DNA from: an uncultured Clostridia bacterium
GTDB taxonomy: Bacteria > Bacillota > Clostridia > TANB77 > CAG-508
Assembly: GCA_944386145.1 (NCBI GenBank)
Contig: CALWZZ010000001.1
Coordinates: 1-42,120 of the forward strand
Direction of reading: 5' to 3'
DNA: 42,120 nt
Below the pieces are notes generated by a model. The model searched no databases. It saw only the letters and a program-made list of their open reading frames with translations, and was not told where the DNA came from. The stretch's first letter is position 1. Every line of letters begins with the position of its first letter. The position numbers were made by a program, and so were the translations under genes. Below are positions 4,151 to 38,557 of the stretch, in pieces.

Positions 4151-5752
4151 TTATTCCTCATAATTAATAACAAAGTCTTCTGGTAAGTTATAGTATTGTC
4201 TTATATAATATTTTATATAATCATTTCCTTCTGTGTATGGCTGTTCTCCGCTATATAAAATATTGGGTAATTGTTTTAATGTTACTTCTGTTACTTCTTC
4301 TCCATTGGCAATCTGTTCAGAAACTGCTCGTAACTTTTGGTCATTTTCCGTATTTACATGACTATTTTCATAATAGCCTTTTGTAATCGTTACCATATTT
4401 AGTAAACAAATTAATAAAAATGGTATCATCATACATGTTATGATTTGTTTTGTATCTTTTTCTTTATACATATCTCCAATAATTTTTAGTGCTATTAAAC
4501 AATATAGTATTTCAAATACAATACTTGAACGAGAAGCAAAATATGGTGCTACAATCATAACCCCTTGAGAAATAATTGCACAATAGAAGAGGTTAATCAG
4601 TCCTTCCGATTTTTGGTTCCATAAATACATGGTCACTGTATATGCAATAAAGAATAATTGTAGTAGCGTAAAGCCAATGGTAGCAATTAAAATCAATCTA
4701 TGTCCTTGTACCAATGAATATACATAACTAAAATATCCTTCTGTTCTTATAAACATTAGCATGGTTATTCCTGTTGTAGATAATAAACTTATATAATTTA
4801 TCCATTTATATCCATAATGTTTCCTAATATTTTGTACACTTGCTATCAATACAGTTGTAAAGAAGAAAAGTCCAAAAATTTTATTATTTTGTCCAAAATT
4901 ACCTTCAATGGTTGCTTGAATTCCGTCTATTGTCCTTTCTATCAATGGTTTTTGATAAAAATCAATACTTGTTGGATGTTCTTTTCTGACTTCATTTCCT
5001 GGTGCTAACATTAAAATTGCAAAACCAATAATCGCAACAACATTCATTGCTATATCTAACTTACTTACCTTTTTATTTCTTATTGCATTATACACTGTAT
5101 AGATTAGCACAAACATTAAGCTGGCAACACCTACCTGCTCTTGTGAAAAAGTTGCTAAAAAGATACAAATCCCCATAATAGCAATATAGAAAATATTTTT
5201 GGTTTTTGTATTTGTTTGTTCTCCTTTGATTTTGAACATATATACATATATATAAATAAATAAAAATAAAATTGGAATTACATATGACACTGCCGCACTA
5301 ATCCAAAAGATACCTGTTCGGAATGTCATAATTTCTATAATACCATATAATAACATGCATGTTAAAGCTAATTTCCATCTTTCAACTTTGTCTCCTAAAA
5401 GTTTGTTCATAATTTTATACATTACAAAAAAGATACCAAATATGGCAAGTGCTTGTACAATTCTGTAACCTGCAAGCCCTGTATATCCTAATAGGATAAT
5501 TTCAAATAAGTAATATAATACTCTTCCGCCCCATATTTGATAATGTCCACTTAAAAATTCAAAAACTTGTCCCAAAGAATAATTGGTTCCACTAACCCCA
5601 TCTACTAAATATGCATAACTTAGTGATGCATATCCATAATCATCATGATACATATATAAAAATTGGTGTTGTATAATTAAAAAGACTATAAATATAATAG
5701 CAATTCCTGCAACAAGAATCGTATCTTTGTAGGCCTTCCAAATGTCTTTCAT
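4151..5752 (-). CDS. Large polytopic membrane protein of unknown function, possibly a second GT-C-like transferase or polymerase
   Basis: The protein is 533 aa with about 12 or more hydrophobic segments, an N-terminal YMYHDDYGYASLSY motif and a short soluble C-terminal tail. The glycopolymer locus context is the only functional clue. Confidence 0.45.
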   Translation of the reverse strand: MKDIWKAYKDTILVAGIAIIFIVFLIIQHQFLYMYHDDYGYASLSYAYLVDGVSGTNYSLGQVFEFLSGHYQIWGGRVLYYLFEIILLGYTGLAGYRIVQALAIFGIFFVMYKIMNKLLGDKVERWKLALTCMLLYGIIEIMTFRTGIFWISAAVSYVIPILFLFIYIYVYMFKIKGEQTNTKTKNIFYIAIMGICIFLATFSQEQVGVASLMFVLIYTVYNAIRNKKVSKLDIAMNVVAIIGFAILMLAPGNEVRKEHPTSIDFYQKPLIERTIDGIQATIEGNFGQNNKIFGLFFFTTVLIASVQNIRKHYGYKWINYISLLSTTGITMLMFIRTEGYFSYVYSLVQGHRLILIATIGFTLLQLFFIAYTVTMYLWNQKSEGLINLFYCAIISQGVMIVAPYFASRSSIVFEILYCLIALKIIGDMYKEKDTKQIITCMMIPFLLICLLNMVTITKGYYENSHVNTENDQKLRAVSEQIANGEEVTEVTLKQLPNILYSGEQPYTEGNDYIKYYIRQYYNLPEDFVINYEE

Positions 5753-5773
5753 ATTTTATCTCATTCCTTTCTT

Positions 5774-5811
5774 AAGGCACAAACCTGGTTGGAAAAGTAT
5801 TTTTCAACCTT
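5774..5811 (-). promoter_or_regulatory. Leader hairpin motif, copy 1 (AAGGTTGAAAA...TTTTCCAA...TTTGTGCCTT), just upstream of the RBS of 4151-5752
   Basis: The minus-strand reading is aaggttgaaaaatacttttccaaccaggtttgtgcctt. It shares an 11-mer and a 10-mer with 22507-22549. TTGAAAA and TTTTC(C)AA can pair. Confidence 0.45.
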
Positions 5812-29315: not shown

Positions 29316-29373
29316 CCAAAATGCTATATTTTTAATATTTTATGAATAAAATATTAAAAATATAGCATTTTGG
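29316..29373 (-). terminator. Perfect 27-bp AT-rich hairpin, probably a terminator after the guaB-like gene
   Basis: The left arm ccaaaatgctatatttttaatatttta, the loop tgaa, and the right arm taaaatattaaaaatatagcattttgg form the hairpin. On the minus strand it is followed by cttttgtt. Confidence 0.6.
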
Positions 29374-31036: not shown

Positions 31037-32227
31037 CTATTTAACAAGTCTCTTTGTTTCTTTTGCAATCATTAATTCCTCATTTGTTGGAATTAAGTAT
31101 ACTTTCACTTTTGAATCAGGTGTAGAAATTGCTTTCTCTTCTCCCCTCATATTATTAGCTTCTAAATCAAGTTTTACACCCATAAATTCTAGTTTTTCGC
31201 AGATACCTTTTCTGATATTAATTTGGTTTTCACCAATTCCACCTGTAAAGATGATATAATCAATTCCTTTCATTGCAACTGCATATTTTGCAATATAACT
31301 TGCAATAGCATAATTAAATTGTTCAATCGCAATTTTTGCTCTTTCTGTTCCTTTGTTTGACTCTTCTTCAATTACTCTAAAATCTGGTGCCATTCCTGAT
31401 ATACTTGCTAATCCTGATTTTTTATTTAAGATATCTTCCATTGTTTGTGGGTCTATGTTTTCTTTTTTCATAATATATGTAAGAACAGATGGGTCTAAAT
31501 CTCCACTTCTGGTTACCATTGGCAATCCTCCAAGTGGTGTTAATCCCATACTTGTATCAATTGATTTTCCATCTTTTACTGCGCAAATGCTGGCACCTTG
31601 ACCTAAATGGCATGTAACGATTTTGGTTCCATCAAGAGATTTATTTTCAATTTCTGCTAATCTTTGAGATACATACATATGAGATGTACCATGTGCTCCA
31701 TATTTTCTTACATTGTATTTTGTATAATATTCATATGGAATTGGATAAATATATTTATCTTTAGGCATTGTTTGGTGGAAAGTTGTATCAAATACAGCTA
31801 CCATTGGTTTACCAGGCATTACATTTTTACAAGCTTCCATTCCTAACACAGCTGCTGGGTTATGTAATGGTGCAAATTCTCCACATTCTTTAATTTTTTC
31901 TATGACATCATCATTAATCACAGCTGATTCTTTGAAAATTTCTCCTCCATGAACTACTCTGTGTCCAATTGCTTCAATTTCGTCTAGTGAATCAATTACT
32001 TTATATTCTGGATTTGTAAATTGCTCTAATGTAAACTCTATGGCTTCTTTATGGTCATATGCTGGTTTTTCAATTGTTACTTTTTTTCCTAATGCTTTAT
32101 GTGTTATAAATGCTTCTTTTTCTCCTATTCTCTCATATTTTCCAGAAGCTAAAACTTCTTCTGTTTCCATATTGATTAATTGATATTTTAGTGATGAACT
32201 ACCACAATTTAAAACTAAAATTTTCAT
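31037..32227 (-). CDS. ackA: Acetate kinase, paralog 1
   Basis: It has [35 protein letters not shown] and RKYG.HGTSH. The ATG at 32227 follows AGGAGG by 8 nt. Confidence 0.9.
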
Positions 32228-32288
32228 TTTCAATTCCTCCTTAATCATTTCAAATTTATTTATCAATTCAATGTTGGAAAAGAATTGG

Positions 32289-32430
32289 GCTTTTGGCTAT
32301 GCTGAGCTTGTTAAGGCTTTGCCTGTTACAAGGTCAGTATGCAGTAGCTGGCAGCCAAGTCGAAAATCAATGAGGCGTGCTTTCTGCACGTTGATTTGAT
32401 TTTCGATGAAGGCTAACAACGCCAAAACGC
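32289..32430 (-). ncRNA. GC-rich structured intergenic element of unknown class, possibly a leader or small RNA; its strand is not determined
   Basis: By hand count, 32281-32430 is about 45% GC in a much more AT-rich context. A hand fold gives three parts. The closing helix pairs 32289-32297 with 32421-30. Arm 1 pairs 32353-56/32360-70 with 32396-406/32411-14, and has an apical cgtgc/gcacg stem. Arm 2 has gctatgc/gcagtagc, cttgt/acaag and aggc/gcct stems. Confidence 0.4.
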
Positions 32431-32439
32431 AATTATTTT

Positions 32440-33627
32440 TCAACAATCCCTAGTCTCTCTTGCTATCATAATCTCTTCATTGGTTGGAATTACAAACGTT
32501 CTAACGTTTGAATCTTCGGCTGTAATTTCTGCCTCTATACCTTTTACTTTTTGATTTTTTTCTTTGTCTATTTTGACACCTAATACCTCTAAATAATCAC
32601 AAATCGCTTCTCTGGAATCTTGCCCTTTTTCTCCTACACCTGCTGTAAATGTCAAAATATCAAAGCCATTCATTGCCACTGCACATCTTGCTACATAACA
32701 AGCTACTAGATAATGGAAATTGTCTAACGCAAGAATAGACCTCTCATCTTCAGCCTTTGCCTCTGCTTCTATATCACGAAAATCAACTGAAACACCAGAT
32801 ATTCCATAAGCTCCAGATTGTTTGTTTAGAATTTTCTCCATGTCATCTGGTTTTAAGTTTTCTTTTTTCATAAGGTATGTAACTACAGATGGGTCTAAAT
32901 CTCCACTTCTGGTTCCCATAGAAATGCCTCCAAGTGGTGTTAATCCCATACTCGTTTCTACTGACTTTCCATTTTGAATTGCACAAACACTGGCACCTTG
33001 TCCTAAATGGCAATTAATAATTTTTAATTCTTTGATATCTTTCCCTACCAATTCTGCCACTCTATTTGCCACAAATTGATGAGAAGTTCCATGAAATCCA
33101 TATTTTCTAACCCCATATTTTTCATAATATTCATATGGGATTGGGTAAATGTATCTTTCCTTTTCTAGTGTTTGATGAAATGCTGTATCAAACACAGCTA
33201 CCATTTTTATATTAGGAGCCAATTTCTTACAAGCTTTAATTCCTAAGATTGCTGCTGGATTATGTAATGGTGCTAAATCTACACATTCTTCGATTCCTTT
33301 TATGACTTCATCTGTAATAACAACTGGTTTTGTGAATTTTTCGCCACCATGAACCACTCTGTGTCCAATGCCACCTAATTCCTCTAAACTTTTTATTACC
33401 CCATAATGCTTATTGGTTAATCTGCTTAATACAAATGAAATTGCTTTGTCATGATTTTTAGCATAATGCTCAAATTTGTGAACTTCGCCATTTACTTTGT
33501 GTGTCAAAAAGGAATCTGCTTGCCCAATTCTTTCAAAATAGCCTTTTGCTAAAACACTTTCTGTTTCCATATCAATGACTTGATATTTCAATGATGAACT
33601 TCCTGAGTTTAATACTAATATTTTCAT
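32440..33627 (-). CDS. ackA: Acetate kinase, paralog 2 (it could be an acetate or propionate kinase)
   Basis: It has the same motif set as paralog 1 ([36 protein letters not shown]). An AAGGAG RBS precedes the ATG at 33627. Confidence 0.85.
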   Translation of the reverse strand: MKILVLNSGSSSLKYQVIDMETESVLAKGYFERIGQADSFLTHKVNGEVHKFEHYAKNHDKAISFVLSRLTNKHYGVIKSLEELGGIGHRVVHGGEKFTKPVVITDEVIKGIEECVDLAPLHNPAAILGIKACKKLAPNIKMVAVFDTAFHQTLEKERYIYPIPYEYYEKYGVRKYGFHGTSHQFVANRVAELVGKDIKELKIINCHLGQGASVCAIQNGKSVETSMGLTPLGGISMGTRSGDLDPSVVTYLMKKENLKPDDMEKILNKQSGAYGISGVSVDFRDIEAEAKAEDERSILALDNFHYLVACYVARCAVAMNGFDILTFTAGVGEKGQDSREAICDYLEVLGVKIDKEKNQKVKGIEAEITAEDSNVRTFVIPTNEEIMIARETRDC

Positions 33628-38426: not shown

Positions 38427-38557
38427 TCCAATTGGGGACGGAGCGATGACTTTGGGGACGGAGCAAAAAATCATCATTTCTATAAAGATTTTTGTAAAAC
38501 TTTTTATAGAATAAATGATGATTTTTTGCTCCGTCCCCAAAGTCATCGCTCTTGGAC
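38427..38557. repeat. Long near-perfect palindrome with 39-bp perfect arms
   Basis: 38441-38479 is the exact reverse complement of 38513-38551. The 33-nt centre is itself palindromic (tctataaa/tttataga). The outer gtccaa/ttggac adds 6 bp across a 9-nt bulge that duplicates ttggggacg. The element starts 5 nt after the ABC gene's stop. Confidence 0.8.

Follow-up and report, generated by a model that had tools for sequence, protein, structure and literature searches.

The BOX elements of Streptococcus pneumoniae are built from boxA, boxB and boxC modules (Delihas 2011, PMC3184786). They are small and non-coding, their hairpin modules are interchangeable, they lie between genes and close to them, they are co-transcribed, and they have no transposase of their own (PMC3184786). 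Here we describe an element with the same traits. It lies between two acetate kinase (ackA) genes in 42,120 nucleotides of DNA (contig CALWZZ010000001.1 of assembly GCA_944386145.1, positions 1 to 42,120; the window) from an uncultured, low-GC member of the Clostridia from the chicken gut. An earlier note, made from the letters of the window, took the element for a candidate structured RNA and possibly a regulatory leader. We conclude that it probably belongs to a family of small non-coding repeats that is found across the order and has not been described before. These repeats are nested palindromes that behave as non-autonomous mobile DNA, similar to BOX, to miniature inverted-repeat transposable elements (MITEs) and to repetitive extragenic palindromic (REP) sequences, and they are passively co-transcribed.

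Other described repeats share further traits with the family. MITEs such as Correia (CREE) in Neisseria, ERIC/IRU in enterobacteria and RUP in the pneumococcus are multi-copy, 100-170 nt long and co-transcribed. Their terminal inverted repeats form a long closing helix, and they can provide stop codons or alter gene ends. REP sequences, BIMEs and REPINs, which go together with RAYT proteins (Y1/HUH), are imperfect palindromes between genes and between the cistrons of operons, and they form strand-specific hairpins. REP2 of Neisseria and IR-A/IR-B of Borrelia resemble a subset of our copies: they lie directly upstream of open reading frames (ORFs), bring a ribosome-binding site (RBS) and contain internal stem-loops (Delihas 2011, PMC3184786). 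Finally, insertion sequences (IS) of the IS200/IS605 group and their derivatives (PATEs) resemble one module of the family. They use a fixed short motif, cause no duplication, leave seamless alleles and keep wobble pairs on one strand.

The element is the G+C-rich part of the 212-nt spacer between the ackA genes (32289-32430: 46.5% G+C; genome: 28.8%). Folded with ViennaRNA, positions 32270-32440 reach -54.9 kcal/mol on the minus strand (z = -6.5) and -70.9 kcal/mol on the plus strand (z = -6.9). Not one of 200 shuffles folds as well, on either strand. With DNA parameters the z scores are -5.6 and -8.9. The computed fold is a three-arm structure (z about -6.5 to -8.9), so the GC-rich multi-helix element that the earlier note had drawn by hand is real. 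Its closing helix, its 11-bp stem, the cgtgc/gcacg cap and the second arm of stacked short helices all appear in the computed folds. The extent given for it, about 140 nt, is too small: the outer helix S1 had been missed, and the full unit includes both S1 arms (Table 1). The copy consists of a 122-nt core of what we call type A, and of a 50-nt hairpin module nested in it. In the long arm of type A, asymmetric internal loops are conserved (minus strand TCAACGT / ACGCCTCAT). As had been suspected, the element matches no known riboswitch or housekeeping RNA. In the window, Rfam returns nothing at the gathering threshold; within 32100-32600 there is only a chance lncRNA match (E = 2.7), and three other copies of the family have no match at E <= 1.

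The genome of the host (G000: 1.63 Mb in 171 contigs, 74% complete) contains many more copies. BLAST finds 13 loci and nhmmer about 22, about 24 long copies in all. Every long copy has S1 (gene-sense GGTTGAAAAATAATT ... AATTCTTTTCCAACC) on the outside and a second, inner helix, S2 (TTTTGGC/GCCAAAA). These helices enclose one of two long hairpins that are unrelated to each other: type A at 17 loci, among them the window copy, and type B at 7 loci. When we searched with the 3' arm together with the flank downstream of it, about 20 short forms came to light, in which S1 encloses only a few bases or a short stem. One short form lies elsewhere in the window (Table 1), preceded by a displaced native Shine-Dalgarno (SD) sequence (ttaggaggagcaa).

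The family extends far beyond this genome. We screened 121 species genomes of the genus and 201 genomes of the order with a covariance model of type A (R1). Matches occur in 80 of the genus genomes, with 1 to 27 or more copies each, and in 72 of the order genomes, which covers 18 of 32 genera and 4 families. All these hosts are uncultured Clostridia of the gut with a low GC content. Phage and plasmid collections yielded no match, and a full-text literature search for the sequences of the family brought up nothing beyond a primer in an unrelated paper that matches by chance. All copies are intergenic. The downstream genes are unrelated (fmt, xth-like, folC-like, guaA, pyrI, plsY, trpS, hpt, ftsY and a pseudouridine synthase gene: ten genes from ten Pfam families). 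Because these are unrelated housekeeping genes, the family does not define a regulon. Some insertions are orthologous across four species. The element is non-coding, and it is not a decayed gene fragment. In short, the family is copied, dispersed and modular (S1, S2 and a hairpin of type A or B), and its pairing is kept by compensatory change.

The compensatory changes were counted in 37 type A copies from many species. Across 36 pairs, 98.8% of the cells are paired, and double changes occur in 22 of the 36 pairs (137 cells). None of 500 shuffles reaches any of these measures, and slid partners are paired in 23-47% of cells. One-sided changes are nearly absent on the gene-sense strand. The earlier note had left homologues and covariation to be looked for; homologues exist, and covariation among them is abundant.

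Comparison of the copies also bears on a possible small protein. A 49-aa ORF (32446-32297, minus strand) starts with TTG after an SD-like flank, and in many copies the TTG follows an SD-like sequence at a distance of 4-6 nt. But 1-nt insertions and deletions between copies shift the frame, and the peptides read from the TTG are 3-50 aa long and unrelated. Substitutions compensate for pairing and are not synonymous, and what looks like an SD in the flank is the one native to the downstream gene. The chance that the element is a small protein gene is negligible; the frame-breaking indels rule this reading out.

The strand on which the helices pair can be read from wobble pairs. We counted a common set of 43 type A column pairs on both strands. 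The gene-sense strand has 1450 Watson-Crick pairs, 5 G·U pairs and 136 mismatches; the antisense strand has 1450 Watson-Crick pairs, 127 G·U pairs and 14 mismatches. At single columns, copies switch among G-C, A-T and, in sense, A·C; this A·C becomes G·U on the antisense strand. Type B shows the same polarity independently (no G·U pairs in sense, 15 in antisense), and so does the 50-nt module (none and 6). The antisense strand also folds better in all 21 copies from the host genome and in all 27 copies from relatives. Cytosine deamination on the non-transcribed or leading strand would give the opposite bias. We therefore read the polarity as selection for pairing on the antisense strand, which is the plus strand in the window. 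Judged from these alignments, the helices are apparently under selection on the strand antisense to the operons.

A constraint on the antisense strand counts against a leader of ackA paralog 1, which would act on the minus strand. Such a riboswitch or regulatory leader would fit the position upstream of this gene, the stable minus-strand fold and the lack of a known RNA family. But the element is multi-copy, stands before unrelated genes, is missing from orthologous junctions including that of a sister species, and has one arm that varies between strains. An ackA-specific leader is thus extremely improbable, and we conclude that the element is not an ackA riboregulator.

If the plus strand is the one that matters, its hairpins would act as single-stranded DNA or possibly as antisense RNA. 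The first would most likely serve recognition by an enzyme that copies or moves the element. The second could mean a plus-strand small RNA, or a terminator or insulator against antisense transcription that enters the operons. Both the wobble polarity and the fold stability favor the plus strand for such an RNA, and the only terminator-like site at the window copy is on this strand (32374-32392, then GATTTGATTT). The apical hairpin of that site, however, lies within a longer stem. Promoter-like matches occur at the window copy about as often as expected by chance (5 found, 3.3 expected), and antisense transcription would be required at over 40 loci in every genome. The available RNA contigs are unstranded. 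We regard an antisense RNA as unlikely. An independent small RNA on either strand, which the earlier note had also considered, is possible but finds no positive support here.

Strand-specific folding with conserved unpaired bases is also a trait of attC sites, the recombination sites of integron-type systems. Like attC sites, the copies are imperfect hairpins of variable length that lie at gene ends in a fixed orientation to the genes. But they are dispersed over more than 20 contigs among housekeeping genes and form no single array, although no search aimed at intI was made. Their ends, GTTGAAA...TTCCAAC, also run opposite to the inverse-core/core order of attC. An attC-like site is very unlikely.

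How the element came to the ackA genes can be seen in related genomes. The ackA|ackA spacers of 8-10 relatives contain no copy; they are 13-110 nt long, apart from one of 312 nt with a small ORF in the sister species L014. The upstream AckA ends with ...ARETRDC* in the window and with ...ARETLKLVK*, ...ARETVNAKEV* and similar sequences in its orthologues. Its last codons and its TGA stop therefore come from the S1 arm. As far as these spacers tell, the window copy is a lineage-specific insertion, and the upstream ackA lost its own last codons to it.

Strains of the same species, which we found through contigs that encode an identical downstream AckA, differ at this locus. Two of them, L136 and L139, agree with the window; in L134, L135, L137 and L138 the element occupies the same position and has no nested module. 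In gene sense the short allele reads ...GGCTGCC^TAGCCAAAAG..., and the long allele adds exactly 50 nt (AGCTACTGCATACTGACCTTGTAACAGGCAAAGCCTTAACAAGCTCAGCA) at the caret. Neither a duplicated base nor microhomology is found on either side of these borders. The module occurs in 6 copies in 3 of the 121 genus genomes, always at the equivalent site of its host and in the same relative orientation (GCC^TAGCC in type A hosts, TCC^TTGCC in type B hosts). A second pair of filled and empty alleles has identical borders (G071 and the orthologous module-less copy G000:C21). With its fixed short motif, the lack of a duplication and two pairs of seamless alleles, the module resembles IS200/IS605 elements in its manner of insertion.

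The direction of the change can be read from the same locus. L014, which has no element, encodes a 64-aa ORF in its ackA spacer. Strains that share this ORF look ancestral because of L014. They lack the module, and the module is therefore an insertion in the derived haplotype. Most simply, then, the allele pairs suggest a recent site-specific insertion. The sequence between the ackA genes of L134, L135, L137 and L138 (window region 32228-32272) and of L014 contains the 64-aa ORF (MGNSKEWREKQR...) and a palindrome (GAGGGCTGTCCC...GGCACGTCCCC), and both are deleted in the window haplotype. The ackA|ackA junction is a hot spot in other genomes too: L018 and L022 carry yet other G+C-rich palindromes there.

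The core varies as well. Between pyrB and pyrI, strains with identical PyrI have either a 119-nt element or a short allele that has lost 113 nt and retains one S1 arm. The 113-nt variant is bordered by a 6-nt repeat, AAAATA, which fits a target duplication and a slippage deletion equally well. At the cvpA copy we see small slippage deletions. There is no consistent target duplication at the other copies, and none for the module. A look-up of the exact GuaA protein for a further pair of filled and empty alleles returned no record, and a look at the gene downstream of the short copy on C22 showed no variation. At the ackA locus, Logan contigs break at the repeat and give no clean allele calls.

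Two other observations were made at these loci. In the neighboring pyrI|pyrC spacer, strains with identical PyrI are polymorphic for a 38-nt tandem duplication (GTAAATAGATAAGGAAAGCGTGCGnTAGCGAAATCAAA; L180, L182 and L184, about 1620-1710), and a third allele in L177, L179 and L181 is an unrelated A-rich spacer. In L194 and L195, which are cvpA contigs, the upstream flank of G000:C13 is joined to the downstream flank of G000:C20 through an identical 125-nt repeat. This junction is either a real recombination between copies or an assembly chimera, and it is a warning for metagenome-assembled genomes (MAGs) of these organisms.

Table 1. Positions of the repeat copy, its parts, a second family member and the flanking genes in the window.
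Feature	Positions	Strand	Details
Whole repeat copy: type A core with nested module	32273..32444	minus (gene sense of the family); plus (pairing-conserving)	Family matches, folds, borders GTTGGAAAAG...TTTTTCAAC
Outer helix S1, one arm	32273..32287		Plus strand GTTGGAAAAGAATTG; resembles a terminal inverted repeat; kept in every long and every short member
Outer helix S1, other arm	32430..32444		Plus strand CAATTATTTTTCAAC, minus strand GTTGAAAAATAATTG; holds the TGA of the upstream ackA (32442-32440)
Helix S2, arm TTTTGGC	32291..32297		Pairs with GCCAAAA at 32421-32427; helix 100% paired, double changes in 3 of 4 pairs
Nested 50-nt hairpin module (second arm of stacked short helices)	32300..32349		Present or absent among strains; site GGCTA^GG (plus), GCC^TAGCC (minus)
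Long arm of type A	32350..32420		Perfect 11-bp stem 32360-32370/32396-32406; apical stem cgtgc 32376-32380/gcacg 32386-32390
Short-form family member	5750..5808	minus	21-nt S1 hairpin GTTGAAAAATACTTTTCCAAC (5808-5788) and canonical tail TTGTGCCTTAAGAAAGGAATGAGATAAAAT, ending at the ATG of a gene for a 533-aa membrane protein
Upstream acetate kinase gene, ackA	32440..33627	minus	PF00871; last codons and stop provided by the element
Downstream acetate kinase gene, ackA	31037..32227	minus	ATG 32227-32225

The orientation of the copies follows the genes. Of the 24 long copies in the host genome, 22 point the same way as the genes that flank them. At 29 loci of relatives, no copy is antisense to both neighbors and 19 are co-oriented with both. 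Overall, the orientation follows the genes in about 51 of 53 copies. This bias is stronger than a co-orientation of 80-85% between genes and replication would produce by itself (P about 0.001-0.01, a binomial estimate). The orientation bias reported for ERIC or Correia elements is much weaker. Whether replication or transcription causes the orientation is confounded in short contigs, where the local GC skew goes with the gene strand. A short copy at C4:8452 has the orientation of its gene and runs counter to the regional skew, but this single case is no more than a hint.

The placement is equally regular. The start of an element is usually no more than about 11 nt away from the upstream stop codon, and about 30 nt separate its end from the next ATG. 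Two processes could explain orientation and placement together. The element may target translation-initiation (SD-ATG) junctions. Alternatively, selection may remove copies in which the stronger, terminator-like fold would be part of the operon mRNA.

Many copies run into a conserved tail, TTGTGCCTTAAGAAAGGAATGAGATAAAAT-ATG, which contains an SD and a stop codon in each of the three reading frames. Of 30 tail motifs, about 20 lie next to an S1 arm. At cvpA of the host genome, a native stop and SD are followed by the element with its tail and then by the ATG. Among the 21 cvpA junctions of related species shown, 19 are a short native stop-SD-ATG junction and 2 have a tail-like SD spacer alone. 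The SD-like sequence upstream of many copies is therefore a displaced native SD, and the element brings the replacement. The tail-like spacer without a hairpin is seen at the cvpA junctions of L213 and L215 (about 650-700; GAAAGGAATGAGATAAAATATG in L213 and a close variant in L215). It could be a remnant after the loss of the hairpin, or the SD tail could spread by itself. Tail-bearing copies thus supply an RBS, as REP2 does. The window copy does not: it has no canonical SD tail, and the downstream ackA has its own SD (AAGGAGG, 32242-32236) about 30 nt past the element.

Could the family be a domesticated module of the mRNA? It would then be an intercistronic cassette that provides a hairpin for RNase processing or stability, a block to ribosomes that read through, or a standard RBS. 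Such a cassette is compatible with a mobile origin. The orientation, the span from stop to start, the tail with its stops, the cvpA arrangement and the insertions conserved across four species all agree with it. So does the RNA at ackA. Two low-depth, unstranded RNA-library contigs (32177-32327 and 32132-32290) reach from the element into the coding region of the downstream ackA without a mismatch, which weakly suggests that the two are co-transcribed. A switch in which the outer 3' arm occludes the SD is less clear. In a partition-function test of 31 cassettes, the mean SD accessibility was 0.41, against 0.36 when the 5' arm was masked (down in 13 cassettes, up in 6 and unchanged in 12). But the mRNA strand is the one with A·C mismatches, at 136 cells, while pairing is conserved on the other. 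The window copy is tail-less in front of a gene that uses its own SD, and strains whose flanking proteins are identical differ in the presence of copies. We give a domesticated mRNA module roughly one chance in four.

Hence we return to non-autonomous mobile DNA. At ackA such an element would be passive in the transcript and would have generic effects at most, such as separating the cistrons or altering how stable the mRNA is; it would not sense a metabolite. The seamless, duplication-free and motif-specific insertion of the module resembles the chemistry of HUH/Y1 enzymes (IS200/IS605, RAYT), which may suggest how it moves. A more specific version of this scenario is possible but tentative. 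In it, a strand-specific hairpin element would grow by nesting, when an enzyme that acts on single-stranded DNA (an orphan Y1/RAYT-like enzyme or another) adds seamless modules at fixed motifs in older hairpins. The element would home between the stop or SD and the next start with its folding strand antisense to the operon. It would bring a replacement RBS, so that essential operons tolerate the composite.

Several points weigh against mobile DNA as the explanation. The 30 best Y1/HUH (PF01797) loci of the genus have no match to the family or its tail within 1.5 kb. Three RAYT-like genes in the host genome are flanked by other repeats and not by this family. A search for an autonomous parent with the same ends (arm pairs 200-6000 nt apart) gave AT-rich noise only, with peaks only at <=60 and 111-200 nt, in an assembly that is 74% complete. 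The allele pairs other than those of the module are bordered by 4-6-nt repeats (AAAATA at pyrB|pyrI, AATT around the interior), so that slippage would fit as well as duplication. The orthologous insertions in four species mean that stable inheritance is possible, which would also fit a retained function. Finally, for co-directional genes the antisense strand would be the leading-strand template, which is not the strand of known single-strand transposons.

The RAYT-like genes deserve a description of their own, as does the sequence around them. The RAYT/TIRYT-like proteins are about 240-260 aa long with weak Y1_Tnp matches (C27:10917-11246, C24:13613-13945 and C6:11267-11602). Each gene is bordered by its own hairpin repeats, of the GGGGACG or the GGGACAGG type. 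The genome also has two IS200-type TnpA genes (C160 and C110). We found no sequence link between the 50-nt module and these two IS200-type and three RAYT-like genes. The window itself contains a different repeat family at 38441-38551, a perfect 39-nt inverted repeat (GAGCGATGACTTTGGGGACGGAGCAAAAAATCATCATTT) with a 33-nt spacer. Its arm resembles sequence just downstream of the RAYT-like (weak PF01797) gene on C6 (AAATGATGATTTTTTGCTCCGTCCC). A further intergenic palindrome of the window, at 29316-29373, has perfect 28-nt arms (CCAAAATGCTATATTTTTAATATTTTAT / reverse complement) and a 2-nt gap.

By the traits that define them, the family fully matches none of BOX, MITE, REP/REPIN and REP2. It has no sequence relation to BOX, and its modules are nested while those of BOX stand in tandem. 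It differs from BOX also in that one of its modules enters a fixed site and duplicates nothing there, that its copies have almost all the same orientation, and that pairing is conserved on the antisense strand. Like MITEs it has terminal inverted repeats, namely S1, which is conserved in long and short forms. A target-site duplication is not clearly visible, and we found no related IS that shares these ends. REP units are 20-40 nt long, whereas our copies are nested and 120-170 nt long. We see no conserved GTAG/CGTC head, and although the host genome encodes three RAYT-like proteins, the family flanks neither these genes nor any of the 30 Y1 loci. REP2 has no terminal inverted repeats and includes a promoter (PMC3184786); no promoter is evident in our family, most of whose copies lie inside operons, and the window copy lacks even the SD tail.

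The 50-nt module differs from IS200/IS605 in that no TnpA is associated with it and that it is a single hairpin instead of distinct left and right ends. In IS608-type elements the active strand is on the lagging-strand template; in our family the folding strand is antisense to co-directional genes. A dispersed hairpin repeat is nothing out of the ordinary, but this one has some unusual traits: nesting by seamless insertion, a constraint on the antisense strand and placement from stop to start.

About the two ackA genes themselves we add that they are about 70% identical to each other at the nucleotide level, and that the tandem pair is kept downstream of pta across the related species examined (loci L014-L023).

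For the annotation of these genomes the family matters in several ways. It removes a false riboswitch candidate: a stable, covarying and GC-rich leader fold can be a repeat that is selected on the other strand. It also accounts for altered C-termini (AckA, PyrB), spurious small ORFs, and breaks and chimeras in MAG contigs. The family probably numbers thousands of copies across the order, in poorly studied gut Clostridia with small genomes, and neither Rfam nor the literature that we searched contains it. Strains whose flanking proteins are identical but which differ by an exact 50-nt hairpin insertion, or by the loss of a core, are unusually clean natural experiments. With such strain pairs one can test how hairpin repeats without genes move, why they keep one orientation in operons, and whether their arrival rewires translation initiation.

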